DNA of 55,896 nt, counting the filler, from Jimgerdemannia flammicorona (Eukaryota), in assembly GCA_003990765.1 (NCBI GenBank). It is 3 parts of 3 records of this genome, joined end to end, with 100 filler letters (N's around TTAATTAATTAA, not from the genome) between each part and the next. Parts side by side here need not be neighbours in the genome. Positions count along the whole stretch, not along the records: positions 1 to 18,568 come from RBNJ01002176.1; 2 more parts are not named here. One strand, written 5' to 3'. The first letter of the stretch is position 1. The number at the start of each line of letters is the position of its first letter. Below are positions 1,744 to 53,979 of this stretch, in pieces. The notes under the pieces were generated by a model. The model did no database searches, was not told the origin of the DNA, and was given only the letters and a program-made list of their open reading frames with translations. Made by a program: the position numbers and the translations under genes.

Positions 1744-2074
1744 TTTAGGACTATTGGGCTACTTGCTTCTTTAATGATGCCAGCTTCTTCCATCTGCTTG
1801 ATTTCTTCTCTGAGCCATTCTTGGTAGGCTGGCAGAATAGGTCTTGCCTTCTGATAAATTGGTTCAGTGTCTCCAGTATCTACTTCATGATAGTAGTGTG
1901 GGGTCTTTCCTTTGATATCCTTGAAATCTGTGGTAAGGATATCTTCAAATTTATAGAATATTTCCTTGAGTTCTTTCTTGAGTGAAAATTCATTTCTGAT
2001 GGTGTAGCTGTGCTTGCTTGTGTTTTCCTCTTTCTTATGCTCAAGTTCGGTGATCTTGGTATTGGTGAATACTC

Positions 2075-2495
2075 CTCTTCCTGTAGATCCAAATCCTTTC
2101 TTTCCTCTTTTCGTTTCCTCCAGCTTCTTAACTTCTATAATCTTTGGTTGTAGCATCAGAAAGATCAACATTTGCACCAATCAGTCCTTCTTCTTGACTG
2201 GAAATGGGATTGTAGGATTGTGATTCCTAGCAATGAGTAGAATTTCTCCAGTATAGTCTGAATTGATGACTCTTTCTTCAATTGTGATTTCACTTCTAGC
2301 CAGGCTGCTTCTTGTCTTGAGAATCCTGACATGATCCTTTAGGATGGTCATCTCCAGTCCAGTTGTGAGTAGAGTGGTTGTCTGGGGTTCCAGTACAGTC
2401 TCTTCTACTGTAGTGATGTCTATTCCAGCTGTATTTTCTGACTTGTATTCTGGCAAGACTACATCAGGGTGGATCTTTCGAATCTTGACCTTGAT
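2075..2495 (-). pseudogene. dUTPase domain of family A pol, between protease and RT
   Basis: AGIDI, RSSLA, VINSDYTGEI, VQMLI and RGKKGFGSTG match the five trimeric dUTPase motifs; one in-frame stop at 2181. Confidence 0.92.
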
Positions 2496-2844
2496 TTCTT
2501 CTTCATCATCACTGTCCTCCAGGAGAGCTGGTGGTTTGTCATCTTCCTCCTTCTCTTCTTCCCTGATCTGTTTTTCAAGAGCTTTCTGCCTTCTTTCCTG
2601 GTGGATCTTCCTGATTCCAATGGTGCACTGGTAGCAATCATTGACATGCTCCATACAGTATATCTTGATCCCATGAGGACAGACTCCTTGTGGTGCATAG
2701 CCTTCTGCCATCTTCTTGTACTATTCTTCTTCACTCATCCATCCAACTTTCTTCTTCTTTGGAGTAGTTACCATATAAGCTTCCTCTTGCTCACTCTCTT
2801 CTTCCTCTATATCAGGCAGGACTCCTTTGTTGACATTGATGGGA

Positions 2845-3195
2845 ATTCATATCTTCTGTCCCCAGTAGGTGATCTGCATCTTCTGAACATTGAGATCAAT
2901 TACTGCCTTGGCTTTGTGAAGCCATTGATTACCAATGAGGATGTCATAGTTGGTGGCATTGGTTACAATTACATCTACTGGGATTGTTGCTCCTCCAATC
3001 TTGATGGGAACATCTCGGATCTTTCCCAGAGGTGTGGCTCTTGTGCTATCAGCTGTGACGAATACCAGCTTAGTTGCTTCTTCCACATCCCAACCTAGGC
3101 GGTCTGCTGCCTTCTTGCTGAGGAGACATCCTCCTGCTCCCATATCGATGATGGCTTCAAAGATTCTATCTTTGATTTAGCATGTTGCATATGCA
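2845..3195 (-). pseudogene. Retropepsin aspartic protease of family A
   Basis: AIIDMGAGG (DTGA-derived) and YDILIGNQWL motifs in ORF 2847..3143. Confidence 0.9.
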
Positions 3196-3759
3196 GAGGT
3201 TTTGCAATTGTCCTCACTTTCTTCTCCTGAGTCCTCTTGAATGTTATTGGCCTCAGTTATCTCCCATCCTTGTTCCTTAGTTGTTTTGGCAAGTCCAAAT
3301 CTCATTTGCTATCTGAATGTTGGGATTTCTGTGAGCTGACCAAAGGTTGCATTGACCTTTTGTTGACTGAGGTCCTTGAAGATATCATACTTGAAGGTCT
3401 TGGTCTTGCGAAGCTTTTTTTCTTTTTCTCCTTCACTAGCTGGAGTGGTTCCTTGGATGATATCTTGAACTGCTTGCTCCAGCTCTGTATCTTGGTCCAT
3501 CTCTTTGGCTTGGCTTTCTGTGGCAGTTTCCATCCACTTTTCCACTGGGTTCTTCTTGGGTCTTCCTGGTGGTCTCTTGTAGGATTCTTTGCGAACATCC
3601 TTCTTGTTGGTCTGAACAGGATAGGCCTCCCATTCCTCTTCATCGGATTCTCTGATTTCTTCAAAGGTGATTGTATTGGCCTGCTCCTTGTTTTGTATAG
3701 TTGTTCTATGATGGAGTTTGTAACCAAGGTGAGAGTTTGGATAACCTCTTCGATTGGTG

Positions 3760-5050
3760 GTCTGGAGATTGCATCGGCAATAATATTTTCCTTGCCAGGG
3801 TGGTACTGGATTTCATAGTCAAAGTTGGTGAGGACTTTCATCCATCTGGCTTGCTTTCGAGAAAGGGTAGCCTGTGTCTTGATGTTGACTAATGACTTGT
3901 GGTCAGTCAATACAGTGAAGTGTGCTCCTTCTAGGTATAGTCACCACTTGATCAGAGTGTCTATAATGGCTAGCATTTCCTTCTCGTGAGTTGCATAGTT
4001 GATTTTGGCATCATTGAACTTGTGGGAGTGATAGGCCACAGGGTGTCCTTCTTGTATGAGTACTGCTCCAAGAGCTAGATCAGAGGCATCAGTAGTGACT
4101 TCATATGGTAGGGCAGGATTTGCTGCTTGAAGTACTGGAGTGGTTATCAAGGCATCCTTTAGTGCTTGAAAGGTGGTATCTTGCTCGGGTCTCCAATTTA
4201 CAAGATTGTTGAAATCTTTCTCTTGTTTCATGGTCTGGGGTTGTTCTTGTTTCTTGCTGTACTTGGTCATTTGGGTGAGGGTGGTAGCAATTTTAGCAAA
4301 GTTGGCAACAAATTGCCTGTAATAGTTTGCTAATCCTAGGAATAGCTGGAGGTCTTTCAGCTTCTTGGGTCTGAGCCAATCCTTGATTGCAGAGATTTTG
4401 CTGGGGTCCACTTTGATTCCATTTGGAGTGACAATGTGTCCAAGGAATTAAATTTCTTTCAGGAGAAATTTGTACTTGCTGAGTTTTGCAAAGAGTCAGT
4501 TTTCTTGGAGTTTCAGTAGTACTAGTTCAAGGTGTTCAAGATGTTCCTCTAGGGTTTTGCTGAAGACTAGGATGTCGTCAATGTAGACAACAATGAATTT
4601 GTCCAGGTATGGATGCAGAATAGTATTCATCAGTATCTGGAAGGTTGCTGGAGCATTAGTTAAGCCAAAGGGCATAACCAGGAACTCAAAGTGTCCATAG
4701 CGAGTTTGGAAAGCTGTCTTGTAGATGTCTTCTTCTTTTATAGCAATTTGCCAGTAACCATTTCACAGGTCAAAGGAGCTCATGAATTGTGGGTTTGTAA
4801 GTCTATCAAATATTTCATTGATCCTCAGAAGTGGGCAACAGTTCTTGATGGTCTGTTCATTGAGATCACAGTAGTCAATGCACATTCACAGGTCTCCTCC
4901 TTTCTTGACAACGAAGAGGACTGGTGCACCATAGGGTGATACACTGGGTCTAATGAATCCTTGTTCTAGTAGTTCATCGATTTCCTTCTTGAGTACATCA
5001 ATTTCTCTTGGAGACATGTGGTAGATTGACTTGAAGGCTGGTTTGGCATC
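3760..5050 (-). pseudogene. Reverse transcriptase and RNase H of family B
   Basis: [21 protein letters not shown] (about 4570-4590), FLGLANYYR, TDASDLALGAVL, EKEMLAI, TDHKSL, ARW and NIIADAISR; several stops. Confidence 0.95.
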
Positions 5051-5329
5051 TGGAATAGTCTTAATAGTATGGTCTACTGCTCATTTGGGAGATAGGCCTT
5101 TCAGGAGCTTCTTTGGGAATATGTCCCAGAATTTCTGGAGTAGTGGTCTGACATGGCTGTCAACTTTGGAAAAGTCTTCTTCAGAGTTCTTGGGTTCTCC
5201 TTTGGATGGATGGATGGAGATAGCAAAGAGAGGGCATTTCTTGGCCAATTTCTTGAGTTGTAGCTTATTGATGTGGGTGATCTTTGGTCCAGGGTCACTA
5301 GAGTTGAGTGGGTCCTTTTCGCCTTGTAG

Positions 5330-5690
5330 TTTGAAGTTGTGGCATCCTTTCTTGATGGTCAGAGAATGGTTTACCCAATCGATCATGGGGTTCTCTTGTT
5401 TTAATCATGGGGTTCCAAGGATGATTTCGTTATCAGGGAGTGGTATGATCTGGAGGGTAACATGTACTTGGTAGTTGCCAATTCGGAAAGGTAGATTGCA
5501 GACTTCTTTGCTAATAACATGTGAGGTTCCATCAGCTATAGCAACTGCTTGAGTTTGCTGTACTGGGGAGGTGAAGACCTTGAGTCTATTGGCTGTCTCT
5601 TCATTGATGAAGTTGCCTGAGGCACCACTGTCTATCATAATCTTGATAGATGCTCCATTGACAAAAGCCTTAAGGGTGAGCAGTTTGTCT
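5330..5690 (-). pseudogene. Aspartic protease of family B
   Basis: MIDSGASGNFI...EIILGTP in ORF 5405..5638. Confidence 0.92.
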
Positions 5691-5904
5691 GATCCAATGG
5701 TGGTGATTTCAGTTGTAGGAGCTTTCCTTCTTTTGGTTCTTCTTTGTGCCAGTTCATTGATACAAGAGAAGCAATATCAATCATTTGGGAAGAGTACATT
5801 CCAATGCCATGAGGGCATTGGCCACTTGGTACATATTCATCTTCGATCTTCTTGTAGAATTGTTCTTCTTTGCTCATGGTATGTTGGGCTAGGGCCTTGT
5901 TTGA

Positions 5905-6305
5905 TGAGCCATTTGGATCCTCGGATGGTAGGCAGTAATTCAAGAACTTCCTTGACTGTCAGGGTTGACTTGATTTTTTCGAATAGGATCTGGGCAATAC
6001 AGAAGCCAATAGGGATCTTGAAGGGTGTCCAACTGTGGTTTCGAATGAGGACAATGATTTCGCCTGTATAATCTTCATCAATGACTCCTCCTTCTACTGA
6101 GAGTCTTTTCAGTACTAGGCTGCTGGACAGCATATTCTTCCAACATGTCCTTCAGGGATTTGGATACTGATTCCTATGTAGACTTGTTTGACTTCTCGGT
6201 TGGAAACTGTAGCTTCTTTGGCTGCATACAGGTCATATCCAGCTGCTTTCTGACTTCCTTTGGTTGGGGCCTTAGCGGTTTGTCTTAACTTGACAAAGTC
6301 CAGTA
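5905..6305 (-). pseudogene. dUTPase domain of family B, between gag zinc knuckle and protease
   Basis: PTKGSQKAAGYDL, SSSLV, GGVIDEDYTGEI, IAQILF and RGSK; a frameshift near 6135. Confidence 0.92.
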
Positions 6306-6319
6306 TTCTTGTGGTCAGG

Positions 6320-8290
6320 TTGTTGAGGTGGTGCAGAGTGGTAACAGTTGCTCATATTGCTGTTCAGAGTTTTCAGTTAGGGCAGGCACTGGCCATGTGT
6401 TCTGTCTTTCAGCAATAGAAGCATACTCTGCTTCTTCAAAGTTCGTTCCTTTCGCCTTCAGTAAGTTTCTTGAAAGTACTTGGCTGGGTGAGTTCATGAT
6501 TTCTGAGTGTCCAAGAGGTAGATGTGGAGGAAGCTCGAGATGCTTCATGCTTGGGTTCTTCTTTCTTGGTCTAAGTCTTTTCCTTATTGTTAAATTGTCT
6601 TCAGGGCAGAATTGGTCCAGCTGTTAGGATTCGCTTGACCATGGTCTTGATTCTTGCCAGGCATCATTGTTGGTGATCACAACCAACTGGGCGGCCTTGT
6701 TCTTGGATTTTTCTAGTAAGCCATTCAGGCAGGACATCAAATAAATGGTCTGCTCTTGTACCATTTCATGCTTCATCATTGGCAATATATCCTAGGCCAA
6801 CAGTGTTCAGGAGTGACTCGAGTTTTGTACAGAAGGTTTCAAATTCTTCTTTGCCATGTATATCAAATTTGAGGTTGCGGAGTTTTACTCAAGATTCAGT
6901 GATCATAGTTTTACTGTGGTATTGAGCGATCATGAGTTGTTTGAGTCCAGGGGCTACAGGATGGGCTCCATATCCTGGGGCATTGTTTGCTGCATTCTGG
7001 GCAACTACTGTAGATCGGGTGTCCCATGTGGGGGGTTTTTCAGGAAGGGTTCACCACCATTCTTCAGCAGGTCCTTGGAAGAATGTAACAACTCAGCGGA
7101 CATAGGCTGTAGTGGTAGCAAAGAGTTGTTCCAGAGTATGGTCTTGATTATTTGTCAGAACGTGGTCAGCAACTCGCTCATTGGTCTATTGATTGGCTTC
7201 GAAATTGGTGTTAACTACACTAATGAAGCTTTGGACTTCTTGTGCAGTACCATTGAAGGTAGGTAGGCTCAGATTTTTGGTAGGTCAGGTCTGTTCAGCT
7301 AAGGCAGTAATAGTTGCTGCCATTATAGCTACCTGGGCTGTGAGATCTAGAATCTGTTGGTTTGCTATATTATTTACTGGAGGCAGTTGGACTACTGGTA
7401 GTAGTGTTACTGGTACTACTTGAGGTACTGGTGCAGAGTGTGATGGGGTTCTTTGGGTCTGTGTAAGCTGCTAGAGTAGTAGTTGTGGATCTGGAGTAAG
7501 GGCTTGATAGATAGCTGTTTGTTGCTGAGTAGGTATATTCTGTCCTGATGGAGGTACTTCTCCTTTGGTAGTATATCTGAGATCGAATTCACTGAGATAC
7601 TCCTCCTCTTCTTTGGTTTGGTCTCCGTGTAATTGGGTTTGCTCGGCGTCAAAGTAGACAGAATCAGTTATATATCTGATTTCAGATAGACTTAATTCAA
7701 AGTCAAGTTCAGGTTTGGTTTGGGTTTCAGATTCAGATAGGGCTGTAGCAGGGCCTACTTCAGGTTCGGAGTCAGGTAGTTGATGAAGGATTTCTCTTGC
7801 TTCTTCTTTAAGAATATGGTGGGCCTTGCTGTTCTGGAATCAGTAGTATAATGTGGTCTTGGTTCTGGTGCGGTGAAAGTCAGTAGAGTTGAGCCACTTG
7901 GCTATAGAGGCTTGGGCTTCATGAGGAACTAAGGCTAGAAAGACTGCTGCTGGTTGTCCTAGGTTGCTCAGATTTGTAGAGCTGACAAAACTCTTATTGA
8001 GAAGAGTAAAGAAGGCTTCAATAAGACCTTCTTCATCTTGACTTGCTGGGTGTAGTGTAAGGAGTTCAGTGAATAGGGTTTCACCTATTTGCTGGTTTAA
8101 CCTGAGTACTTCTTTCTTTGAATAAAGTTTGTCCCACTTGTTGCAGGTGTGAAGGTCAAATTGTCCTTGTACGTCAGGTTCAATTCTCTCCAGATTGTCA
8201 GATGGTTCAGGATAAATTCCAGTTCAGAGGTTGGGCTTTATACCAACTTGTAGGAATTCACAGAGGGGTTTGTAGTGGGGTGAGAAAGCA
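6320..8290 (-). pseudogene. Gag of family B with CCHC zinc knuckle and long N-terminal extension
   Basis: CFYC*KTEHMASAC at about 6384-6425 and capsid-like PTFNGTAQEVQSF near 7260. Upstream coding-like sequence runs toward the PBS; start position uncertain. Confidence 0.75.
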
Positions 8291-8312
8291 TCTTGAAGTA
8301 GAATTGGATTGT

Positions 8313-8327
8313 AAACTGCTGCTACCA
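8313..8327 (-). promoter_or_regulatory. Primer-binding site of family B (TGGTAGCAGC, initiator-Met-tRNA-like)
   Basis: TGG begins after a 3-nt ACT spacer following the LTR end at 8331. Confidence 0.75.
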
Positions 8328-8330
8328 AGT

Positions 8331-10396
8331 TATAAGAGGGTTGCTTTTTAGAGTAACTGTTACATAGTTCTGGAAAGGTTTTCTGGATATTCTGGATGTT
8401 CTGGAAGACTGTTTTCTTATGGTCAAGATCAATTTCATATGGAGTACGTCCTCTATGCTTATTGATTTCAAGATTGGGTTGATGTCTCAACCAAAGTCCT
8501 TTTTCGAACTAGTTCTAGATGTTCAGAATTTTCCATATTTCAGGAAGTTCAAGAAACTAAGACCAGCTTAGTTGAATTGGCATATCACTGCAGACAATAC
8601 CCAATTAGGAAATTTTGTGAGGGGGTTAGGAGTGGAACCTAACAGGGAGTGGATTTACTTAAGAGTGGTTTGTGGGTTATTTGAATAGGTTTATTTGCTA
8701 TTTATGATATTGCTATACTAGGAGTAGTTGTATGAAGGGATATTGTGGAGAAGTATTCAGGAATGTTCTTGTGTGTTTGAGTTTGAGATTCTGAGGTCTG
8801 GGGGAGGTGGTATTTATACTAGTGAGGGGCTATCTGAACTATGCTGAATATGGATGTAGCACTAAGTGCCTTGCTGAGTCGGAATGCAGTCACATAGTAC
8901 AAGTGTGATCTGACATGTCAAGAGATCATCTGACTGCTGAGTCAGTTCACAGTTATGTCATACATACAATGCTAATCTAACTATACTATGACTGCTAGGC
9001 TATTTATGGGTTTAGGCACTATCTGGGTAGTCTTCGATGACATCACTATTGATTGCATCATCTCTGATAAAGTAGTCATCTAGGAAGAGTGGTTCACAGA
9101 TTACTTCTCCTTGTTCACTGAGGTAATAATATATTGGAACTTCATCACCATCTCACAGAATAGCATCATCTGTCTCATAGGCTGGATAAGGTGTTGGTGG
9201 ATGAAGGATGGATATGTTGTTTTCGCTTTCATTGGATTCGCTGTCTGCATACCTTCTATAGGTTATAATACTATAAGTTGCAGGATTGTAGTAAGCTGGT
9301 GGCTGTAGTTCATGTCACTCGTACTCAGGTGGTGAAGTGGTTGGTTCAATCTCGAGGGTTGTCTGGAGGTACAGGTTGTGTTCTCCGGTCTCTTCATTGT
9401 AGTTGAAGTAATCAGGAGTGAATGCAGGTTAGTATTCATGCCAGTGATCATTGTCCCAATAAGTTTCGTATACTGTTATGAATTGTTGTAAGTTCATCAG
9501 CAAGGTTGGCAGTATGATCAGGGTTGGCAGAAATCCTTGGCTAGAGGTCATATTGATGTCAGAGGGATCATTGTCTTCTGCTTCATCTTCATCGAAGTGG
9601 ATTATATCGTAGATATCCTTCATGGTGTATCCAACTTGGGGCATTTGCAGGATATGGTCATTGGAGTGTGGGAAGGTTCTGTCTGTGGTTTCGACATACT
9701 TGAGGTACTTGTGGTTGAGTTTTTGTATCATATCATCGATTTGGCCATAGGACAGAGTAGCAACCATTTCGCTGGTAGTAACTCGGAGATGAGGAATAAT
9801 AGTACTGACCTCATAGAAGAGTTCTCAATGTTTGCGGGCGATGAGCTTCTGATGTTGAGACATCTGGGTAATGTCTGTATCATGGTGGTGTTCAACCATA
9901 TCCTCCAGGAGGTGGCCGATCTGGTAGTAGCTTGAGATTTGTCCAATTCGGTGGGCCTCGCTAAGCATGTTCAGAGTGTTCCATCAGACTTCCATGAAGT
10001 AGAGGGGTGCCAGGCTATGGATATTCATGAGGGGCAGAGGGGGTGTGGCTTGGTTGACAATGGCATTCCAAATGTCAGTGCAGATACAGTTGTAGATCTC
10101 GGTGGTCATGTTTGTGTGTTTGGAAGTTTGTAGTTGTTATTTGTTTTGGTTCTCTGTTTCAACGCATCTCAGTGCTCGATATATGCATTTGATCCTGATT
10201 GATAAGATTCTGTTTGTATAAATCTTGTATTCTGTGACTTCGTATTGACTCAGCTTTATGCACTATGACTTCAGTTTGACTCAGCTTCATGATCAAGCAG
10301 GTGATTTCCAGATTTGTTCGGAGGTTGTGTGAGATTTCAGTAGCTTGTTCAGAGGGTGATGTGTAATTTCGGTGGCTTAGAGGTTGTGTACTTACA
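8331..10396 (-). repeat. Family B 5' LTR, 2066 bp
   Basis: Termini TGTAAG...CTTATA (eroded CTTACA). The same two boundaries appear in the copy at 49419-50536, which is preceded by a PPT; the left boundary also appears at 32130. TATAAATA at 8811-8818. Confidence 0.85.
9012..10109 (-). pseudogene. LTR (U3)-encoded accessory ORF of unknown function, 365 aa with five in-frame stops and no frameshift
   Basis: One frame from ATG 10109 (MTTEIYN...) to TAA 9012 (...EDYPDSA*). Internal stops are 4 TGA and 1 TAA, compatible with C>T or G>A changes. Includes ORF 9429..9767. Confidence 0.8.
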
Positions 10397-12699: not shown

Positions 12700-13500
12700 T
12701 ATTCAACTAACAGTATGTAGAGAGGAGTCATGACTTGAGAGGAAGTATGAGAGATCTGCTAGCTAGAGGATATAGAAGAGGAGATGGTAGTACTAGGAGG
12801 CAGGAGACTGAAAGAGTGAGCTTTGCTGACAAGATTAAAACTGAGTGCTTATTGACAGATCTGGAGATCTAGCTGTAGTGTGATAAGGGGAAGAGGAGGG
12901 ATATAGGGTCTAGTAGAGAGGCTCCTGAAAGTAATAGTAGTAGGGCTGAGAGAGTTATGGCTGAGGGTAATAGGACTGCTAATGGAGAGTGAACTGCTAA
13001 TCTGAAAAAAAATCCATGATGACTGATGGTGGGGCTGGACAGAGATAGGATATAAGGCTCAGAGATCTGACTGATGGTGTAACAGTCCTAGTGGCAGTAC
13101 TGTTAATCAAGAAATTAGTATCTAAATTTACTGTCACATTGTGCTTCTGGGGTCTAGCAGTTATAGCAAGGATAGTTCTGAGACTGCTGGCCCAGGAAAT
13201 TAAAGAGACTGCCTCAGTAAAGTTTTTGAAGAATCTGAAGGGGGTTGAGGTGGGGTTTGAGAAGGAGGAATTGATACTGGGAGTATTGAAGAAGAGTGTG
13301 ATAGTAGGAGAAGTAGTGATCCTTATAACTTGGTACTTATACTAGGATCCCAGAATAATATAGCTAGTGGTAGTAAATATATCAACAGTAAAGAAAGAGG
13401 TAGCAAGGGGGCTGATTGTCAATATCATCAAGGAGTATAGAGATATAGTAGATGTGGGCTTTCAGACAGGTTATACAACCTTCTGATAACACTCATGACA
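12700..13500 (+). mobile_element. Truncated L1/Tx1-like LINE fragment (5' part of ORF1)
   Basis: ORF 13091..13345 is homologous to 13847..14236 and 46468..47106 (FTVTLCFWGL...SVKFLKNLKGVEVGFEK). Confidence 0.8.
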
Positions 13501-13509
13501 TAGTTTTTA

Positions 13510-16500
13510 GAGAAATAATACTAGCAATATAGTGAGCAATAAGTATTCTGAGATGCATACTGGGCAGGGGGGCCTAAGTGTATTTGACTGATAATATGTA
13601 GGGAGAGGCCCTGGCTTGAGGGGAAGCATGAGGGGCCTGTTGGCAGGAGGATGTAGAAGGAGAGGAAGCAGTATTGAAGGATAGGAAATCAGGAGGGTGA
13701 GCTTTGCAGATATAGTGAAGAGGAGAGAGCCAATGACAGAACTGGAGGGCTGGCTAAGGAGAGGCAAGGGAGCAGTGAAGACTGCAGAGCAGCAGTAGCA
13801 GGGGGGAGTCCCTCTGGAGGGTCAGAGTAGTGGGGCTGACAGTGTAGTGACTGAGGGAGTAACTGCTAATGGGAGCATAATGGGCAATCTAAAAAAAAAT
13901 CTAGATAGGACTACTGATAGTGGACTGAGTTATGAGAAGAGCATGAGGCCTAGTGATCTGGCTAATAGTGTAATGAGTCTGGTAGTGGCTCCATTACTCA
14001 AGAAGTTGATCTTAGAGTTTGCAGTTACCTTGTGCTTCCAGAGCTTAACAGTAATAGCAAAGATAGTTTTGGGGCCAATTGCTAAGCAGATGAATGGTAC
14101 AGTATCTGTTAAGTTCCTAAGGAGTCTGGAAGGAGTAGAGGTGGGCTTTGAGAAGGCAGAGCCATTGGAGGAGGTACTGAAGACTGGGTTGATAGTTGGG
14201 AAGGTATATATCTCAATGATATGCTACTTGAGATGAGATCTCAGAGTAGTGCAGCTCTTGGTGAAAGGAGTTCCTATAGTGACTACTGTGGAGATGAGGA
14301 GGAGAGTTGAGGAAGTTATGGCTGAGTATAGAGAGATGGTTGATATAGGGTTCAGGGTCTGGGAAGAGAACTCCTTTCAGATAAAAGATATTGATGTCCA
14401 GATTTAGTTGATGAGAGAGAGGCTACTGGGAAGGCTCATGATTGGCCTTTAGTTATGGTGTGGGGAGCCTTGGTATATAAGGTAACAAGGGTGAAGGGGA
14501 CTGAGGAGGAGGAAGAGAATCTGTTGGAGGTGCTAGAGGAGCTGAGTAGTATGTATAGTAGAGTGGAGGGCAAAGGCTTGGAAGACATATGTGAAGTCAA
14601 TGCACTTAGAGATTATTGATGGGAAGCACATCCACATTGATATGGAGATATGGGAGGGTCCCAAGGATACAAGCAGTAGAGAGAGTTGCTGGCAAAACTA
14701 GAGGGAGAGACAAAGAGAGCTGCTGGTAGTAGTGAGAATACTGGAGGAGCCAAAGTAAGTATCTGGGCCAGCAGAAGTAGAGAGATTGTAGAGGTGGGTC
14801 CAGAGGAGGCCAGGAAGGCACCAAGTAAGAACCTATATGAGGATGGTATATTTGAAGTCTGGGAGGATACTTCTCTCCCTCTTATCAGGTGGAGACCAGT
14901 AGTGAGAGGCCAGGTGGTAGAGGATGTACTAATGTATGATACCTAGTGAGTATATTTTGGGGTTTCTGAGGTAGTGAAGAGAGGACAGGTGGTGGCAGCT
15001 AGAGAGGAGGAACTGGTGGACATCTCAGAGAAAGAGTGGGATGAGACTACAAGTATAGGAGTAGATATATTAATGCTGAGTAGAGGAAAACCAGCAACTC
15101 CAGAGGAGAAGGAGGTGGAAAACCTACTATAGATGTATCAGATGCTGAATAACTTTACAGCTGAGGAGTTGGGAGAAGTGGATCTAAGAGTAATGAGTGA
15201 TAAGCATTTGGCACAGATCCTGTATAGTGATAGAGTGGTAGAGGCACTGAAGGCAGAGGTATATACTTGTAGTTTTCCTGGAGGAGGAAGGGTATGAGGT
15301 TGATAAGGAGAGAGAGGCTGAGCTGGCAGTGGCAGCTGGTGAGCAGACTGCCTTCTGTTAGGCAGAGCATCATAGATTACAGCTCTGGCAGAAGGTCTGC
15401 CTAGAATATCATAAGGTTTTTGAGAAAAAGAAGGATGGGGAACTAAATGAACTTCTGAGAAGACTGGAGGTAAGAAGAGTTGAAGAGGAAGAGGTGACTA
15501 TAGAACATAACTTAGACTTGGTATAGAAAAGGATAAATGTGGAGTTATATAGAGCAAGCAGAATTCTTAACATTATTTCTTATGAATAGTATAACAAATA
15601 TTTTTTCTTTGAATGTGAATGGACTGCAGGGTTCAGTTAGATATCAGAATATTTTTACTTGGCTTAAGAGCCTGGAGGTTGATCTCTTTCTTTTATAGGA
15701 TATTAGATGTAAAGATTACTTAAACAGATTATAATAGATGATAGAATAGGGTAGAGTGGCAGTTTGAAAGAATAAAGTTGGAATCTTGGTTCAGAGAGAC
15801 AGAGGGGAGATATAAGATATAAGGAGCTGGGGTGACAGGCTGGTCTGGAGAGAGTGAATTCAACCAGGTTGAGAGCCAGTTATGGTGGAGTCCCACTACT
15901 GCCCTACTGTATATGGTGAGAGAGTGGATTAGGTGAAGAGACTCCAGAAGAGTGGAGCTCTTGCAGAGGTAGGAGTGGACATTCTTAGAAGGGACTTTAA
16001 TATGGTCTGGGATATGCAGGTAGATAGAACTAATAGAGGGCAGGGGGCTGAGAGTAAGAGCAGGGGTCTGGGGTCATAGAAGGAAGTAGAGAGACTGAGT
16101 TCCCTGATAGATGCTGGCAGGGGACTCTGGAGAGATAGGAGAGTCTATATGTACTGGACCAATGGTCTGGAGATAAGGATTGACTAAATGTTGACAGCAG
16201 ATTGCTGGGGTCTGGATGTTTGGAAATTGCTAGAGGCTGAGTAGTGTCTATGATCTGATCACTGGGGGCTATTAGGGCAGGGTTACTTCAGAGAGAGTGA
16301 GAATAGGTCTGGATATTGGTATCTCAACTCTTCTTTGTTGGCTGAGAAGGTGTTGTGGGACAAGTGGGTAGAGGATATTTGGCAACAAATAGAGGATTGG
16401 ATATGGGAGGGGGCCCCAGTGGATGTCTGATAGGTGAAGTTGAAGGAGGCTACTAAGGTCTACTAGAGTATAGCTGGAAAGAAGACTGGAAGGCAGAGGA

Positions 16501-18568
16501 GGAGGAGAGTGATCTGGGCTTTGGTTAGATTGGCTGAGCTTTAGATAATTGGGCAGAACTCTTAGCCTTAGAGGGAATGGAGGATTGGAGAGTGAGGTGG
16601 GCAAAGTTAGAGGTTGTAGAGCTACAATAAGTATTAAAGGAGAAGAAGGAGATACAGATGTAGAGTTTGGCTGTATGGCTTTGCTGGCAGGAGCTGGAGG
16701 AGGGGGAGAGGCCCTCTAAGTTCCTTTCAGAGTCCCTTAGGGTAAGGAGAGTGCATCAGAGATAGGAGGGGGTCTTAGATTACAATGGTATACTAGTGTA
16801 TAGTCTCCAAGACATTCTGGGCTTACTGAAAGAGAGGTGGAGTAGTTTGTAGAGTGAGGAGGAGAGTGGGGCTAATGAGACTGCTATTGAATATACTTTG
16901 GAGGATTGGTACTCACCACAAGTAGATGGGCTGGGCAGTTTGGTAGTATCAGTACAAGAGGAGGAGGTTTGCCAGATTCTTGTCACAACTATATCAGACA
17001 TGGTACCAGGAGAGGATGATCTGCTCTGGGACTTTTGGAAGAAGATGGTGGAAGTCCCTGAAGTAATGTGGGAGTTGATGGTACTTTGTGACTTGGTTCT
17101 GTAGTCAGAGAGGTGGGAGGGTGAGCAGGATCTGAGGCTGGTGGCACTGCTTTTTAAGGATAAGAGCAGGAGAGAGAATTGGAAGAAATGGTGGCCAATC
17201 ATGCTACTGGATATGGACAGAAAGTTGGTCACTAAGGTGGTGGTGGTGAGACTACAGAAGGTGGCCCAGTAAGTCTTGGGGGAGAAACAGTAATGTTTTA
17301 TAGTGGGCTGGCTAATTAGGGATAGTATGGCATAGGTGCATAGTATTATTGAAGGGGCTTGAGCTTGTGGATTGAATGGGAGATTGGTCTTTTTAGATCA
17401 GGAGAAGGCTTGTGACTGTGTTCAGTGGGTCTGACTGGTGAAGATACTGGACAGGATTGGTATTCCTTGGTAGTTCTAGGAGATGATAGTCAGCCTGTTG
17501 GAAGGGAGTAGAGTAGTACTTATGTGTAATGGGCATAGAGAGATAGTATTCCCTCTTGATAGGGGTATTTCTCAGAGGGACCCACTGTTATCTATTTTGT
17601 ATACTCTGTCCTTAGAGCCATTGATAGATAGGATCCAGCAGAAGATAGTGAGGCTCTCAGTATTTAGTGTAGTATAGAAAGTTGGGGCCTTTGCAGATGA
17701 TATGGTAATTGGTCTGGAATCAATTGTAGATATCAAGGAGCTCCAAGAAATGGTGGAGTAGTACAAGGCACATCTGGGGCAAAGCTCAACTGGTATAAGT
17801 GTAAAATAATAGTATTGGACAATGGCTTGGTGGGAGGGGATGTCATTGGAACAATTGTCCCTGCTAGAGAGGCTGTTAGGTACTTAGGTGTCTATCTTTC
17901 AGTATATGAGTCCATTCTACCAAGACTTTGATAAAAACAGAGGGTGGCTATCTGGGGGGAGGCCCTGTAGAGTTGGAGAGACTGCTGTATTTCTTTGGTA
18001 TAGTATATTACAATTTTGAATGTCTACTGACTGCCGAAGCTATGGTATCTGGCATATTATCTAGACATTCTAGCCTAAGTGATGAAGAGGCTTTTGAAGT
18101 TGGCTAGAAATTGAATCTGGGCTGGGAGGTGGAGTCAGATTAGCTGAGAAATCTTGATATTGCCAGTGGCTAGAGGAGGACTTAGACTGGTTGACTTCCC
18201 AAAGAGGCTGTATTGTTTGAGAGCATAGTGGCTGAAGAGAGCAGTAGAACTGAGGAGTGGTAGCTGGGTTCCACTGATGAAGAAGATCTGAGAGATAAGA
18301 TATTTATCAAGAGGCTCTACCAGAGATCTATTGTCCTTAGTTGGGCTTCAAAATAGTAGGCATATGCAGTATAAGTGCTTCTGGTAGAGAGTAGTAGATG
18401 GGACTCACCATATTGAAATCTGCTGATAGGGAGATAAAGGAGAGGTGTCTTGGGACCTGACAATATAGAGATGAGATAGAGTATTGTTGGGGGGTATCCT
18501 CCTTTTGGAATTTGATATTAGAGATGAGGTTGAATGCCAGAGGGGGTTGGGCCAGGATGCTTTTTTTT
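13510..18568 (+). mobile_element. L1/Tx1-like LINE, degenerate: ORF1 about 13580-15560, ORF2 (APE-RT) from about 15583 to the gap
   Basis: APE motifs SLNVNGL, GDFNMV and SDH; RT motifs PIMLLDMDRK, LDQEKA, SQRDPL and FADD. Colinear with the minus-strand copies. Confidence 0.92.
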
Positions 18569-18668: not shown

Positions 18669-20004
18669 TTTTTAGATGTGTTGAGATGTTTCTATATTAT
18701 CTTTATATATTTGACTTAGAAATGGGAGACACATAACTCAGCCAAAATGCTCAGAGCTCAGCCAAATGGAGAAATGTGTGACCAATCTAAAAATAATTCA
18801 GGTACTGCCGAGTTGTGACTATCGACGCTTTAGACAACCCCTCGATTAGGGAATCCTATTTAAAGCATTTGAGCATTTGTTGCATTTGTTGCACTTTACG
18901 CAATGTTCTCTCTTTCAAACCCTTAGTCGTTACTTCAGGATTTTTTACTCCCTCTCACCTCTCTTTGATCGGGTTCTTATCGAACTGACCGACGCAACGC
19001 ATTCAAGACAGAAACATTCATGCACGCATTCGCCCAAATACAAACAAATGACAATCATTGACAATTTTGTGTTATCGGTTATTGGGACAACGAGGGAGAG
19101 TTGGTTATCAAAGTAGCGAGAGGGATTTAGTCACGTAGCTTCGGTGGTTGGAAGGAAGCAAATTGTATACAGGTTAGCTCACTGTCACGGAAGTTTGGAG
19201 GTAGATGCGTGGGCGCACAATGACTCGAAATGAGAAACGCTCAATAGTTACCTTTCGGGATTTCTTTTCTCCATAGGGCTGCGGGTAGTCATGAGCGATA
19301 TACTCCGAACGTTCTCCCTCGATTTTTGATTCATATCCACCCCCTCCATTAACCAATAGAAACCGGTCACACAAATGATTCCGGTCTAAGGAAATTACGT
19401 TTCATAGTCGTGTAGCAAGATACCTACAAACTGGGAGGTTTTTGTCTTTGCACCTGTCAATGTGGTAGGCTTAGAACGGTGCGTGGTTGTGTGGGAGGAG
19501 ACGAAGTGAAGGGGGGAAAAAATTGGTGGTAGGTGTGTTGAAAGCTTGGTGTAAATATGGGGTAATTCGCTATTTCGGTGAGTCCAGAAACTGATTTGTT
19601 TATGCCCTTGCATATGGGGTATGTACTCCACGTAAGCCTGGCGGCGTAGTCCGGCGGCTCTCGGTGTCGACTCACTGCGGGAGGAGAAGTTATTTGTTAT
19701 GGTTGTTATGGGATAACCCATCGTTGCCTTATGGGGCTCGGCCCGGCGGTCGTCGGCGGAGGTCATGTGATCAATTTTCTCGCGCACTTTTCATGTTGGC
19801 GAGTGTGTGCCTAGTTGTATCGTCGCAGCTGCTCTTTTATTACCATGCAGCGCTTTGCTCTAACCGCTAGCTGGTTCTTGGGTTACGTTGTCAGATCAAT
19901 GCCAATATAGCTCGTCCACCAAGCTACCAGAGGATCAGATTTTGTCTGACGTAACCGTGATCTGTATTTTTGAAACGCCGATCACTAAACTGCTACAGGA
20001 AAAG

Positions 20005-20063
20005 CTCCTGCATGGTATCCCTTTTTTTTTTTTTTTTTTTAACGGACTCCTGCATGGTATCCC
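20005..20063 (-). mobile_element. Poly(A)-tail micro-insertion with 17-bp target-site duplication
   Basis: CTCCTGCATGGTATCCC at 20005-20021 and 20047-20063 flanks T19+AACGGA. Confidence 0.8.
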
Positions 20064-20122
20064 CGATAAACTACCACACCACCACGCGTCCGATGCCGCA
20101 GTAACCTAAATTCCTTGGTCCA

Positions 20123-31350: not shown

Positions 31351-31519
31351 CAGGGGACAAATGAAACGAGCTAATTGGAACCCTTTGCCCATCAAGCCTA
31401 CCAAGCCTATATATGTCAAGCTCTCACAGATAGTATTCATATTGCTACTATAGTTAAACCCAAGCATCTGCTAAAGCTGCCATTACTATTACCAAATAAA
31501 AAGCATAATAGTTGCCAAC

Positions 31520-32130
31520 CATATCATCAATTTGGCCATAGGTCAGAGTGGTAACCATTTTAGTAATAGTGACTCAGAGACAGGGAATAAAGGTACTGTA
31601 CTTATAAAAGAGTTCTCAGTATTTATATACAATGAGTTTCTAATGTTGAGACATTTCAATAATATCTATATCATAGTAGCAGTTAACTATATCTTTAAGG
31701 AGATATCTAATTTGATAGTAGCTGGAGAGTTGTGTGATTCAGTAGGCTTTACTAAGCATATTCAGGACATTTAATCAGACTTCTATAAAGTAGAGAAATG
31801 CTAGACTATAGATATTTATCAGAGGTAAAGATGCTATGGCATAGTTGACAATAATATTCCAAATATCAACATAGATATTGTTATAGATTTCAGTAGTCAT
31901 TACTAGATATATATTTGAGAATTATAGTTATTTGTTTGTTATGGTTCTCTGTTTCAGTATATAATATATCTGATATATATCTCTTTGATTTTAATTGATA
32001 AGGTTCAATTTTCATAAGTCTTATATTCTGTAACTTCAAACTGACTTAGCCTTGTAATCTTACATATAATTTCTAGATTTGTTCTAAGAGTGATGTATAA
32101 TTTTGATAACTTAGAGGTTGTGCACTTATA
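31520..32130 (-). repeat. Family B LTR fragment (U3 start and N-terminal part of the LTR ORF), heavily mutated
   Basis: Colinear with about 9730-10396; ends at the same terminus (CTTATA at 32130). Confidence 0.85.
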
Positions 32131-32925
32131 ATCATCCACTAATCTGTCATTATACAAAATTATGTCTAATTTAGAAACTACCAAAATTGTCCATACTACT
32201 AAATAAGAAACCATTAAACATTTTGTTACTTTTTAATAAAGTAACTAAGGGACTCAAATCAATCTATATAGCTACCTCAACCTTCTAATTTGTCTTCATT
32301 GAGTCAGTATATTATACTAAATATATAAAATAGAATAAGAATTGAAATATAGTAGATTATGATTATACCTCTATAGCTCTTCAATAGTAAGCTCTTAGCT
32401 GTTACTCTTTTTCTAGTAAAATAGTCAGATAAATTTAAAATTAATAAATCTGAATTATTTAAATATATTTTATATTAGTAATTAAATTATAGCACTTATA
32501 TAATTATTTTAAATTACTCTATCCCAGAGGTAAATAAAAAGTCTAGCTCAACCCCCCCCCTCCCCCACACTCTTATACATATATCTTTCTAGTAAGTTTA
32601 ATTCTCTATAATTTGAAATTTTGACCAAGATAATATATCATACTAAATAGATCAAGTAGATTAATCATAATGATATATATATATCAGATACTTTATATTT
32701 TAACTTTATAACTATGATAATATATAATAATATAAATATATATATAACTACTAGCTCAAAATTGAGCAAACTTAAATTGTCTTTTTAGAACTATCTTGAA
32801 TTTATCTCAATTTTAGATTTATATATCATTATATAAGAAGTTTTCTAGATATAGTTATATTACTAAATAGTAGTATTATCTTAAAAGAATATAGAAGTAA
32901 ATTAGTTTTATATTTTATTATCTAT

Positions 32926-47257: not shown

Positions 47258-50200
47258 TCCACCTCTTTCACCTTATTGACCTCATATCCTTCCTTCTCCA
47301 AGAAAACTACAAGTACCTCTACCTTCAGGGCCTCTATCACTCTATCTCTATATAGGATTCACATCCAATAATTATCACTTATCATCCTCAGGTCCACTTC
47401 TCCCAATTCTTCAGCCACTAAGTTATTCATCATCTGGCACATCTACTGTAGGTTTCCCACCTCCTTCCTCTCTGGAGTTATCAGTCTTCCTTCTCCCAGT
47501 ATTGAGATATCAGCCCCCATACTTGTAGTCTCATCCCACTCCTCCTCTGGAATATCTATTAATTTATTCGCATTAGCCATCACTACCCATTTCCCTTTCA
47601 CTATCTTAGAAACTCCAAAGTGTATTTGCTGAGTACCTCACATTGGTACATCCTCTGCTGCCCAGTCTCTTGAAGCAGGTCTCTGTCTGATAAAAGGAGG
47701 AGTATCTTCTCAGACTTCAAATATACTATCCTCATATGGGTCCTTACTTAGCACCTTCCTGATCTCCACCAGATCCTCCTCTATCTTCTCTCTACTTTTA
47801 TTGATCCAAATACTCACTTTGGTACCCTCAGCATCTTCAATTTCACTAGCATCCCTCTTTGCCTTCTCTCCCAGGTTTGCCAGCAGCTCCCTCTGCCTCT
47901 TATACTCTTGAGACCTCTCCCATATCCTCTTATCAATATAATATACCTTCTATCTATTATCTCCAAATATATTAACTCTATATATGTCTTCCAAGCCTTT
48001 GTCCTCTGCTCTATCACACTACTCAGCTCCTCCAGTGCCTCTAACAAATTCTCTTTCTTCTCTTCACTCTTCTTCACCCTCATCACCTTGTATAAGAAAG
48101 CCCTCCACACTATTACCAAAGACCAATCTTGAGCCTTCCCAGTAGCCTCTCTCTTAGTCAAATGAATCTGGACATCAACTCCCAGTCTGAAAAGAGATTC
48201 CTTCCCAAACCCAAAAACCAATATTGACTACCTCTCCATACTTGGCCATGACTTCCTCGACTCTCCTCCTAGTCTCTATAGTAGTTACTATAGGAACTCC
48301 TTTCACTAGAAGTTGTACCACCCTGGGGTCCTACCTCAAGCAGTACATTATCAGAATACTCACCTCTCTAATAGTTAACCTAATCTTCAGTATATTCTCT
48401 AATAGCCCAGACTCCTCAAAGCCCATCTCTACTCTTTCCAATCTCCTCAGAAACTTCATAGATACCACACTAGCCACCTACTTAGCAATCAGCCCCAAAA
48501 CTATTTTCACTATCATCACTAAGCCCCAGAAGTACAAAGTAATCATGAACTCTAAGATCAACTTCTTGAGTAATGGGGCCACTACCAGACCTATTACACT
48601 ATCCATCAGGTCTCTCATCCTCTTAGGCCCTATCTTCCCAGCCCTACTATCAGCAGTCATGTTTGGATTTTTTTCCAGATTGCCAGTTACTACTTCATCA
48701 GCAGTTATATCTCCAGCTACTACTCCACCAGCTCTTCCACTCAACACCCCCAAGAGAGCCCCTCCTGGCCCCCCAGCAGCAGCTTTCTTCTTACCCCCCT
48801 ATAGCTATCTATCCAGTCTAGCTGCCTGACTCCTCTGCCTGATCATCTCAGCAAAACTCATCCTCTTCCCCTCTGTCTGTGCCATATCTCCTCCTCTACT
48901 GCTACCAACCCTCCTTCCTTCTGACAAGGTGCTCAGTATCTCCAATCCTGCTTCCTGATCTCTCCCCACATACTGCCAGCCAAATGTACTAGGGCCACCC
49001 TGCCCAATACACTCTGTAGAACTCTGATTCAAGAATATATTCTTAAGACATTTCTCTAAGAATGATATAAAAGTAGGTAATATAATATTTGTATAATGTG
49101 AGATATATCAGGAAGAGATCATATCTATTATATATAATTAATATTTTAAGAAGATAGAATATATTATTCATATCTGTCATCTTGAATTTCTGGCATAGCA
49201 TCACTTTTATATCATTAATCTCACTTATTATTCTGATCAGAATAATACCATGGATCTAAATTTCTAGATATACTATTCCTATATAAATTGGCCTCATAAT
49301 GCTTAAATCTGTTATCTAAGAAATATTTGTTAATTTTTTGATTCTATAGTCTTACTGCTTATTTGATACTATAGAGATCTTTATAGAGTTTATATATAAG
49401 CTCCTTTTGCTCATTATCTGTAAGAGGATTACTTATAAAAGTACTATTACATAGTTCTGGAAGGGGTTTCTAAAAGTTCTGGATATTCTGAAAGACTATT
49501 TTCTTTTAGATCAAGATCAATTTTATATAAAGTATATTCTCTATATTTATTGATTTCAAGATTGAATTAATATCTCAACCAAAGTCCTTTTTTGGACTTA
49601 TTCTGAATATTCAGGATTTTCTATATTTTAGGAAGTTCAAAAAACTAAGACCAGCTTAGTTGAATCAGTATATTGCTGCAGACAATATCTAATTAGAAAA
49701 TTTCATAATAGGGTTAGGAGTAGGACTTAATGGGGTGCAGATTTACTTAAGAGTAGTTAGTGGGTTATTAAATAGATTTATTCACTATTCATGATATTGC
49801 TATACTAGGAGTAGTTATATGAAGAGATATTGTGGGGAAGTATTTGGGAGTTGTATTTGGATCTGTTTAAGTCTGTTTAAGTCTAAATATATTTGATATA
49901 CTTGTGGTTGAGTTCTTGTACCATATTGTCAATTTGGCCATAAGATAGGATAACAATCATTTTAGTAGTAGTAACTTGAAGATAAAGAATAAAGGTACTG
50001 TACTCATCAAAGAGTTCTCAGTATTTATGGGTGATGATTTTCTGGTGTTAAAACATCTGGATAATATCTGTATTGTAGTGGTATTCAACTATATCTTCTA
50101 GGAGATAACGGATCTGATAGTAGCTTGAGATTTGTCCAATTCAGTGAGCTTTGCTGAGCATATTCAGGGTATCTTATCAGGCTTTCACAAAGTAGAGAGG

Positions 50201-50758
50201 TGCTAGGCTATGGATATTTATGAGAAGCAAGAGAGGGGTAGTTTAGTTGACAATGACATTTCAAATATCAGTATAGATACAGTTGTAGATCTCAGTAGTT
50301 ATATTTGTATATGTTTAAGAGTTATAATTGTTTATTTGGTTTGTTATGGTTCTCCATTTTGATATATCTGAGTGCTCAGTATATATATATTCAGTCTTAA
50401 TTAGTAAGATTCTGTTTATATAATTCTTGTATTCTATGACTTTGAGTTAACTCAGCTTTGTGATCTTGCATGTAATTTCCAGATTTGTTCTAAGAGTAAT
50501 ATGTAATTTTGATGACTTGAAGGTTATATACTTATAACTCTTCTCTTTTTAGTTTTGAATATCCTCATCGAGCTCTTCTAAATTTGATCTAGTATTGTTA
50601 CACCATTTGGATAGTCAAAAGTCCAGTAATATTCAAAGTGGTATGCTCATAGTACAGTTGTCTAATACAATAGATTTATATATTAAAAAGTTGTATATTT
50701 GATACTATATACCAGAAGTAATTCTGATATCATTTACTAATGGAGAATTTCCTCTAAG

Positions 50759-51460: not shown

Positions 51461-53489
51461 GTTCTTGTGGCCATATTTATTAAGGTCTCAATAATCAATA
51501 CACATTTGTAGGTCTCTTCCTTTCTTGACAACAAAGAGAACTGGTATATCATATACATAGTAATATACTGAGTCTAATGAATTCTTATTCTAGGAGTTTA
51601 TCAATCTCTTTCTTGAATGCATTAATTTCTCTCAGAGATATATAGTAGATTGACTTGAAGGTGGGCTTGATATCTGAGATAGTCTTGATGATATAGTCTA
51701 CTACTCATTTAGGTGGTAGATCTTTTGAGAGTTTCTTTGAGAATATGTCTCAGAATTTCTGAAGTAGGGGTCTAACATAGCTGTTGACTTTGAAAAAGTC
51801 TTCTTTGAGGTTTTCAGGTTCTCCTTTGGATAGACAGATAAAGATAGCAAAGAGAGAGCATTTTTTGGACAATTTCTTGAGTTGCAGTTTGTTGATATGG
51901 GTGATCTTTAATCTAGAATTACTAGAACTGAGTGGGTCTTTTTCTGTCTTACAATTTGAAATTGTAGCATTCTTTCTTAATGGTCAGGAAATGGTTTACC
52001 TAGTCAATTATAGGGTTCTCTTACTTTAACCATGGAGTCTCAAGGATGATTTCATTGTTAGAAAGTGATATGATCTGGAGAATAATATGTACTCAATAGT
52101 TACTAATTTAGAAGAGTAGATTGTCAACTTCCTTATTAATAATATATGAGTTTCTATTAGCTATAGCAACTGATTGAGTCTATTGTACTAGAGAGGTCAG
52201 AAACTTAAGTCTGTTGGCTGTTTCTTCATTGATAAAGTTGTCTGAGGCACTACTGTCTATCATAATCTTAATAGATACTCAGTTGACAAAAGCTTGGAGT
52301 ATAAGTAGTTTGTCTGATCCAATTGTAGTAATTTCAGTTGTAAGAGCTTTTCTTCTGTTAGTTCTTCTTTAGGCCAGTTCATTGATACAAAAGAAGCAAT
52401 TATTGATTATTCAGAAAGAGTATATTCTAATACTATAGAGATATCAGCCACTTGGTACAAATATATCTTTAATTTTCTTATAGAATTATTCTTTCTTATT
52501 TATGATAGTTTGGGCTAAGGTCTTGTTTGATGAGCCAAATCCTTTAGATCCTTGGATGGTAGGCAGTAGTTCAGGAACTTCTTTGACTATCAGAGTTGAT
52601 TCAATTATCTTAAATAGGATCTGAGCAATATAGTAACCAATAGAAATCTTAAATGGTCTAATTATGATTTCAGGTGAGAATAATGATTTTACTTATATAA
52701 TCTTCATCAATGACTCCTTCTTTTACTGAGAGTTCTTTTAATGCTAGACTACTGCAATAGTATATCCTTCCAATATATTTTTCAGAAATTTGAATACTAA
52801 TTCCTATGTAGACTTGCTTTATTTCTCAGTTGGAAACTATAACTTCTTCAGCTATATATAGATCATATCTGGCTACTTTTTGGCTTCCTTTGATTAGAGC
52901 TATAGCTGTTGTTCTTAACTTGACAAAGTCTAGTATCTTGGTAGTCAGATTGTTGAGGTGATGCAGAGTGATAATAGTTGCTCAGATTGCTGTTTGGGAT
53001 TTTTAGTTAGAGCAGACACTGACTATATATCCTGTCTTTTAGCAATAGAAGTATGCTCCACTTCTTTGGAGTTCATTTCTTTCTCCTTCAGTAAGTTTCT
53101 TAAAGATATCTAGCTGGGTGGGTTCAGAATTTTGAGATATCCATGAGGTAAATATAGAGAGAGCTTGGGATACTTTATATTTGAGTTTTTCTTTCTTAGT
53201 CCAAGATTTTTCCTTATTATTAAATTATCTTCAAGGCAAAATTAGTCTAGCTATTAGGATTTACTTGACTATAGTCTTGATTCTAGCCAGATACTATTGT
53301 TGATAATCACAATCAATTGAGTATTCTTATTCTTAGATCATTCTTATAAGCTATTCTGGTAGTACATCAAATAAATAGACTACTCTTATGCCATTTTGTA
53401 CTTTATCATTAGCAATATATCCTAGGCCAACTGTATTCAGAAGTGACTCAATTTGTACAGAAGGTTTCAAATTTCTCCTTGCTATATAT

Positions 53490-53942: not shown

Positions 53943-53979
53943 ACTTCCTCCTGAATGGATGGTCTCATCCCTGAGGCAT

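Follow-up and report, generated by a model that had tools for sequence, protein, structure and literature searches.

The stretch of DNA considered here (the window) comprises 55,896 nucleotides, filler included, from three joined parts of the Jimgerdemannia flammicorona assembly GCA_003990765.1. Its minus strand contains a unit, named L, which is most likely, judging from its ends and neighbouring motifs, a long terminal repeat (LTR) of a Ty3/gypsy-type element, and which encloses a decayed reading frame of 365 codons, named ORFX. The copies of L found in the window, and the features by which their ends were recognised, are the following:

8331..10396, minus strand: LTR copy 1 (L), in 5' LTR position, TGTAAG...CTTATA, with ends common to the other copies and differing flanks
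49419..50537, minus strand: LTR copy 2, in 3' LTR position, lacking the equivalent of 8757-9696
31518..32131, minus strand: LTR copy 3, a fragment of the upstream 0.6 kb only, with the upstream end and the N-terminal 128 codons of ORFX
8316..8328, minus strand: primer binding site (PBS)-like TTGGTAGCAGCAG, two bases past the end of L
50538..50550, minus strand: purine tract AAAAAGAGAAGAG, candidate polypurine tract, adjoining the upstream end of copy 2
10314..10378, no strand assigned: 32-bp tandem duplication within the first 80 bases of L, in copy 1 only

Read on the minus strand, L begins with TGTAAG (10396->10391) and ends with CTTATA (8336->8331), while copy 2 terminates in CTTACA; the termini form a 6-base inverted repeat, TGTAAG/CTTACA, with the TG...CA ends expected of an LTR. 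Comparison of the window with itself revealed that the upstream end is common to all three copies (10396, 50536/7 and 32131), the flanks outside it being all different, and that the downstream end is common to both copies reaching that far (8331 and ~49419), again next to unlike flanks. Because the copies align to the same end bases and are unrelated beyond them, L is a mobile unit with defined ends. No extra L sequence was found to the left of copy 3.

The motifs expected at the borders of an LTR are present as well. The PBS-like TGGTAGCAGCAG starts at 8327, two bases past the LTR of copy 1, and the 13-base purine tract (50550->50538) lies one base from the first base of copy 2. The initial annotation had fixed the boundaries by the termini TGTAAG/CTTA[CT]A, the PBS at 8327 and the tract next to the second copy at 50537, all of which were found again. 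A search of the window for tRNA genes detected none. Copy 1 precedes, and copy 2 follows, the same kind of internal sequence, so that L is represented, in one orientation, at both the 5' and the 3' LTR position. In the run of organism A, one contig (X3 record 29, 8201-8394) spans the end of L into the PBS and leader, and another fits from 10397 onward and diverges before that position, i.e. it is without L. Copies 1 and 2 were also considered as the LTR pair of a single insertion, but this was rejected, as their flanks differ and the break of copy 2 at 53489 is the LTR end of another element.

The frame carried by L, and the signals surrounding it, are:

9012..10109, minus strand: ORFX, 365 codons plus a stop, with five internal stops at amino acids 42, 95, 227, 265 and 319
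8811..8818, minus strand (8818->8811): TATA box TATAAATA, 194 nt downstream of the ORFX stop, read from the sequence
8690..8695, minus strand: AATAAA, a candidate poly(A) signal, of putative function
10246-10252 and 10277-10283, no strand assigned: two TGACTCA sites upstream of the ORFX ATG
8938-8944, no strand assigned: a third TGASTCA site (TGAGTCA), preceding the TATA box

The ATG of ORFX lies 287 nt inside L. Its internal stops, four TGA and one TAA, are far fewer than in sequences of the same base content: shuffled versions contain 18.5 +/- 4.1 stops, and six or fewer were found in 0.05% of 2000 shuffles. The frame had been described as running from 10109 to 9012 with five stops and no frameshift, and comparison with two related proteins, P0004 and P0005, bears this out. 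The recurrence of its N-terminal part, also reported before, could be placed at 49919-50302 in copy 2 (50302->49919, 9 stops) and at 31517-31900 in copy 3 (31900->31517, 128 codons); in all three copies ORFX starts at the same distance from the common upstream end.

At stops 42 and 95 the relatives or other copies have Arg, at 227 they have Gln and at 319 Trp; for the last of these, 439.8 of the 449.1 depth of metagenome X1 reads the Trp codon. The initial annotation had explained all five stops by deamination-type changes; this holds, as C->T or G->A, for 42, 95, 227 and 319, but not for 265, which is aligned with Gln in P0004 and is not explained by a single change from a Gln codon. ORFX and P0005 differ by 16 single-step changes, of which 12 are C->T or G->A toward the window copy and 7 strike Arg CGN codons, both stops of that part included. 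The observed/expected CpG ratio is 0.01-0.38 in the repeats, compared to 1.05 in the gene region at 20000-26000; since CpG is depleted in the former and not in the latter, the decay resembles deamination of methylated CpG. The three ORFX copies of the window are dead, having undergone C->T/G->A decay, much of it at CpG, together with one 940-bp deletion and one truncation.

Relatives of ORFX were sought among ~15 billion proteins (~5.8 billion clusters, 1.84 billion representatives). Only P0004 and P0005 proved to be true relatives, both of them fragments and both free of stops. P0004, which is 247 aa long and encoded on an ENA contig of 998 bp, matches ORFX residues 115-364 with 158/250 identical (63%) and 200/250 similar positions, the last aligned residue being the penultimate one in both proteins; P0005, of 128 aa and encoded on a JGI contig of 1180 bp, matches residues 1-128 with 111/128 identities (87%) and shares the start Met. 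When random drift to 64% identity was simulated, a frame of 248 codons stayed free of stops in 2.3% of 2000 runs. None of 1069 candidate longer proteins contained ORFX, and no pol-ORFX fusion was seen. Two scans of JGI metagenome contigs yielded no confirmed locus among 74 and 188 pattern matches, nor did viral contigs among 242. A further protein, P0006 (436 aa, from the library of representatives), consists of six 68-residue repeats, each of which aligns with ORFX residues 111-149 at 33-36% identity (LSFDKIADFIEKLNNGY against LSYGQIDDMIQKLNHKY, 39 residues). It was not accepted as a relative, the similarity being limited to 39 residues at 36% and taken as chance or a short common helix.

Selection on the frame was evaluated by comparing the window copies codon by codon, in three pairs sharing 129-140 codons. 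Differences fall on sense codon positions 1/2/3 in the numbers 29/15/48, 36/19/52 and 33/21/38. Synonymous differences were compared with a null in which the same changes are redistributed among sites of equal base and CpG status. In the sense frame the first pair has 44 synonymous differences against 32.7 +/- 3.5 expected, a value reached in none of 1000 shuffles, and the second has 47 against 36.9 (P=0.01); the third is taken up below. Neither of the two shifted frames gives an excess in any pair. Furthermore, of the 13 best-supported differences between metagenome contigs and ORFX, 6 are synonymous in the sense frame and one turns stop 319 into Trp. Because its stops are few, its relatives are free of stops and an excess of synonymous changes is confined to the sense frame, ORFX is considered a selected sense-strand gene. 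These codon patterns show that the ORFX of the family was once kept open under purifying selection, although it is now broken.

DNA of the ORFX family is present in multiple copies in several soil metagenomes. Matching contigs number 4838 in X1, 688 in X2 and 563 in X3 and cover 30/30, 29/30 and 30/30 bins, respectively; ratios of LTR to internal depth were not taken as copy numbers. The contigs listed from other samples span the ORFX ATG, position 9696 and the ORFX stop, and no listed joint omits 8757-9696. In three other samples contigs join ORFX to the LTR parts on both sides, and P0004 covers the junction at 9696, which is lost in copy 2.

Within the LTR, ORFX occupies the position expected of a U3 accessory gene, behind the purine tract and ahead of TATAAATA. 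The placement upstream of a TATA box at 8811-8818, already proposed, agrees with the box identified here, and because ORFX is located upstream of it, the frame most likely lies in U3. From this arrangement the LTR probably consists of a U3 of ~1.6 kb containing ORFX, followed by R and U5. A weak hint in the same direction comes from run X15, whose label as RNA is a guess: its depth changes sharply just downstream of the TATA box, from 10 in bin 8765-8895 to 4184 in bin 8634-8764. Over most ORFX bins it is more than 100-fold lower, bins 9158-9550 being higher solely through one 9.6-kb contig. That contig (X15 record 12, window 9226-9503) is a 9601-base sequence of organism B in which 278 bases near one end are ~80% like the middle of ORFX; it continues into sequence unlike the window and may represent a related element of different layout.

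A different organization of the LTR can be envisaged, in which it forms a self-contained gene starting in the first ~250 nt of L and ending at AATAAA, so that ORFX would lie in R or in an LTR-internal unit and every LTR, solo copies included, would be expressible. The two TGACTCA sites upstream of the ATG, together with GCATATATCG ~75 nt before it, are compatible with such a start, and the AATAAA (8695->8690) is suitably located downstream of the ORFX stop; a TGAGTCA site also precedes the canonical TATA box. However, one of the two upstream sites arises from the duplication private to copy 1, and TGASTCA is not enriched in the window (12 found, 10.4 expected). In addition, the sole strong TATA box is downstream of ORFX, and the deep cover of X15, a run labelled as RNA by a guess, begins just beyond that box. 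This organization is therefore judged unlikely.

The sequences next to copies 1 and 2 belong to an element here called Y:

3821..8315, minus strand: internal region of Y, with a long gag-like frame including a CCHC knuckle, dUTPase, protease (PR), reverse transcriptase (RT) and RNase H, without integrase
51461..53489, minus strand: internal fragment of Y copy 2, from the middle of gag to the start of RT, 79% identical to 4841-6861

Pfam matches place the domains of Y, in order, at 6276-5915 (dUTPase), 5692-5345 (protease), 4840-4430 (RT) and 4195-3821 (RNase H), with E values from 1e-12 to 4e-30, and the gag frame downstream of the PBS-like site of copy 1 is almost open. The copy breaks off before the point at which the integrase of a Ty3/gypsy (Metaviridae) element would follow: at ~3800, after RNase H, the homology changes and a different PR-dUTPase element takes over. 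The LTR of copy 2 is positioned 3' of the gag-to-RT fragment of Y copy 2, the upstream part of which is cut at 53489. The dUTPase occurs in the window in two arrangements, as gag-dUTPase-PR in Y (5915-6276) and, leftward, as PR followed by a dUTPase-like stretch (~2300-3212); the latter was read from the translation, and only the protease of that fragment was scored.

Taken together, these data favour, with somewhat better than even confidence, the reading that L is the LTR of the Ty3/gypsy-type element Y, and that the family carries ORFX within its LTR, likely in U3. Y would be organized as gag-dUTPase-PR-RT-RNase H, with ORFX situated between the polypurine tract and the probable start of transcription. 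Following the standard scheme of reverse transcription, a single ORFX would be present near the 3' terminus of the genomic RNA, it would be copied into both LTRs whenever the element replicates, and any solo LTR would retain one copy. Expression could take place through a subgenomic RNA covering the 3' end, or else ORFX could have its own promoter within the first 287 nt of U3, with termination at the AATAAA of the LTR.

Several observations weigh against this reading. The window holds no element with LTRs on both sides in which a target site duplication could be sought, and the bases bordering copy 1 on its 5' side (ACAAC) do not match those bordering copy 2 on its 3' side (GATAA). Y copy 1 is without integrase, broken off at ~3800. 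In copy 2, the 940-bp deletion corresponding to 8757-9696 has removed two thirds of the frame along with the TATA box, and its RT fragment is separated from the purine tract by 924 bp of AT-rich DNA with simple repeats which could not be shown to derive from Y. If transcription starts upstream of ORFX, the frame could lie in R. As to the coding strand, the third pair of copies has no significant excess of synonymous differences (34 against 30.0, P=0.17). The codon-aligned antisense of ORFX (plus strand, ~8990-10135) contains only 5 stops in 366 codons. Finally, the single-step amino-acid differences to P0004 fall on codon positions 1/2/3 in the numbers 44/14/9; the DNA of P0004 being absent, these do not separate the strands by themselves.

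The lack of paired LTRs would fit the view that L is not an original LTR, ORFX being a later passenger, such as a host gene fragment or another small mobile element, captured in the LTR of one sub-lineage, or L being an independent element with short inverted ends beside Y. The use of Leu codons, with CTA and TTA accounting for 3/30 in ORFX and 17/51 in the RT-RNase H part of gag-pol, points in the same direction, as do the short LTR (only 466 bp, without homology to L) of a neighbouring family and the breakage of both copies 2 and 3 at ~9696-9729. A passenger is, however, hard to reconcile with a start equidistant from the upstream end wherever a copy exists, with a PBS-like site two bases from one end of the unit and a purine tract at the other, with contigs of three other samples linking ORFX to both adjoining LTR parts, and with the search of ~15 billion proteins, in which no homologue outside this context was found and the fragments P0004 and P0005 were the only matches. 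We regard this explanation as very unlikely.

The near-open antisense raises the further possibility that the true frame is the antisense one, that both strands code, or that ORFX is open by chance and untranslated. All five antisense stops can be produced by C->T on the plus strand, and their number is low beside that of three of the four gag-pol segments tested, whose antisense frames have 4.5-7 stops per 100 codons; the antisense of the fourth, gag_core, has 6 stops in 350 codons, but its sense frame is probably off. In the sense frame, moreover, 44 of the 67 single-step differences to P0004 are at the first position, and CTA and TTA, the Leu codons scarce in ORFX, would make antisense stops. 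The window copies nevertheless point the other way. Their differences are most frequent at the third position of sense codons, corresponding to the first in antisense, and for each of the three pairs the antisense synonymous counts (21 vs 30.2, 29 vs 32.5 and 29 vs 28.5) equal the null or fall short of it. Only 2 of the 13 metagenome variants are synonymous in antisense, compared to the 6 in sense, and two gene callers picked the sense frame, with start and end shared. The strand is settled as sense by the three window copies, which leaves these alternatives extremely improbable even though the antisense is unusually open.

The product of the favoured sense frame was compared with known families and folds. 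At E<=10, no Pfam family was detected for P0001, P0004 or P0005, and no match was found among PDB sequences. An AlphaFold model of the full-length protein was not usable, its predicted local distance difference test score (pLDDT) being 32.4, while the N-terminal 128 residues were modelled as three helices with a pLDDT of 60.9. The fold search which the initial annotation had suggested, performed with Foldseek on this N-terminal model, gave no PDB match at E<=0.001. The ESM Atlas contained no usable match for P0004, and recognition of P0005 was below the bar, with fewer than 170 shared features. In the tail (amino acids 141-365), Asp+Glu account for 20% of the residues, Lys+Arg for 2%, and Tyr and Pro for 9% each, which gives a net charge of -41; P0004 is alike, its net charge being -36. 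The highest mean Kyte-Doolittle hydropathy over 19 residues is 0.97 in P0004 and 0.57 in P0005, and no membrane-like segment is present.

Thus, two features previously noted, a helical N-terminus (as predicted) and an acidic, Pro/Tyr-rich tail, are retained, but two of the three motifs singled out within the tail, PPEY and PPAY, are not conserved in P0004, the 63% relative, where HPPTPYPAY and PAFTPDYFNYNE...TGEHNLYLQTT are. These results rule out an env-like role and an obvious enzyme. The earlier proposal of a transactivator or anti-silencing factor finds no homology or fold match to back it, and that of spread by solo LTRs is not supported either. It is only tentatively suggested, from composition and modelling, that the product may be a regulatory or adaptor accessory factor, neither envelope nor enzyme, with a helical N-terminal third, an acidic, Tyr/Pro-rich and probably disordered tail and no membrane segment.

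Genes in comparable positions are known from retroviruses. The sag gene of mouse mammary tumor virus (MMTV), a betaretrovirus, lies in the U3 of the LTR and encodes a superantigen that is a type II membrane protein; like ORFX, it is a full coding frame in U3, in sense orientation, and thus present in both LTRs of the provirus. Betaretroviruses have the dUTPase ahead of the protease, an order also found in Y. Lentiviral nef and the foamy-virus bel/bet genes are accessory genes which start in the internal region and overlap the 3' U3; they share with ORFX a location at the 3' end of the genome extending into U3. Unlike them, ORFX is wholly contained in the LTR, starting behind the purine tract, and no homology to them was found. 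It differs from Sag in having no sequence or family match, no membrane segment and a Ty3/gypsy-type retrotransposon, rather than a retrovirus, as host. ORFX therefore resembles MMTV sag by position, but by its sequence and predicted features it is not a member of the Sag or Nef family.

In LTR retrotransposons, the additional open reading frames (aORFs) described in the passages available of PMC7264820 and PMC10309623 (plant env-like frames, antisense aORFs, Boty, CERV of Cer1) are located in the internal region; CERV is presented in the latter as a non-envelope regulatory protein. As characterized in the available part of PMC7264820, aORFs are, like ORFX, lineage-specific extra genes that belong to no known protein family and are retained by the majority of an element's copies, but ORFX is placed inside the LTR rather than in the internal region, and hydropathy over 19 residues reveals none of the signal-peptide or transmembrane marks of an env-like frame. 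The passages on bdelloid ORF3s in PMC5408684 mention no gene inside an LTR. Fungal Ty3/gypsy elements with a dUTPase, such as PosPlaTy3 of Postia placenta, carry it at variable sites of Pol according to the accessible passages of PMC2864245, and the window similarly has both the gag-dUTPase-PR and the PR-dUTPase arrangement. The same passages name no LTR-borne gene, although a figure legend lists an 'add. ORF' whose location they do not show. In the full-text literature searched, LTR-encoded proteins appeared only for retroviruses; subscription papers and supplements were outside its scope, so that this is no proof of absence.

As a whole, the window consists of decayed, nested retroelements surrounding a single gene region of ordinary kind. 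A second retrotransposon family, segment B, occurs at ~10397/10444-11151, at 53489-53943 and, inverted, at 33179-33643; it has a 466-bp LTR (TGTAAT...ATTACA) containing TATAAATA and AATAAA, followed by the PBS-like TTGGTGCC and the start of gag. Its LTR has no homology to L. An apparent link between L and segment B was resolved as nesting, L being inserted in the gag of that family at 10396; conversely, a member of the family (RNase H and integrase, 53900-55896) is inserted in Y copy 2 at 53489, and the two families are mutually nested. The integrase domains of this neighbour are not accompanied by a chromodomain match at E<=0.001. In Y, the integrase end, at whose C-terminus a chromovirus would have its chromodomain, is missing, and the chromovirus label implied in the initial annotation is not supported.

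Other repeats were also observed. GATTCGAATTGA-like repeats are located at 50780-51090, within the 924 bp before the purine tract of copy 2, and a 14-bp/70-bp tandem repeat (AATCCGAATCACTC) resembling them is found at the window start, at 260-436. A third family of retroelements is represented by large copies, inverted as well as tandem, which relate 13467-18558 to 37454-48734, with 68-76% identity and an observed/expected CpG ratio of 0.01-0.07, and an inverted repeat pair, 70% identical, is formed by 1747-3510 and 34571-36310. A plus-strand frame at ~1200-2000 seems, in translation, to resemble a hAT-type transposase. On the same strand, frames at 20434-21958 match the Major Facilitator Superfamily (E 1.7e-25), and 20000-26000 looks like an island of host genes between methylated, decaying repeats.

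A gene borne by an LTR is unusual for a retrotransposon and known from few retroviruses: in the literature covered, extra genes of LTR retrotransposons are described between the LTRs, and genes in U3 for retroviruses only. Because a gene in U3 is doubled whenever the element inserts, and is not lost when the LTRs recombine with each other, it follows rules of dosage and persistence other than those of gag-pol. It is conceivable, though quite unlikely, that a family of Ty3/gypsy elements of soil eukaryotes, probably fungi, has made its LTR a self-contained gene, with enhancer-like sites, ORFX and a poly(A) signal, for an orphan acidic factor acting in trans on the entire family, for example by activating its promoters or blunting silencing, with two copies per insertion and one per solo LTR. 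If ORFX is expressed, it would provide a handle on the self-regulation of the element or on host silencing, and the placing of accessory genes in U3, as practised by retroviruses, would have arisen independently in retrotransposons.

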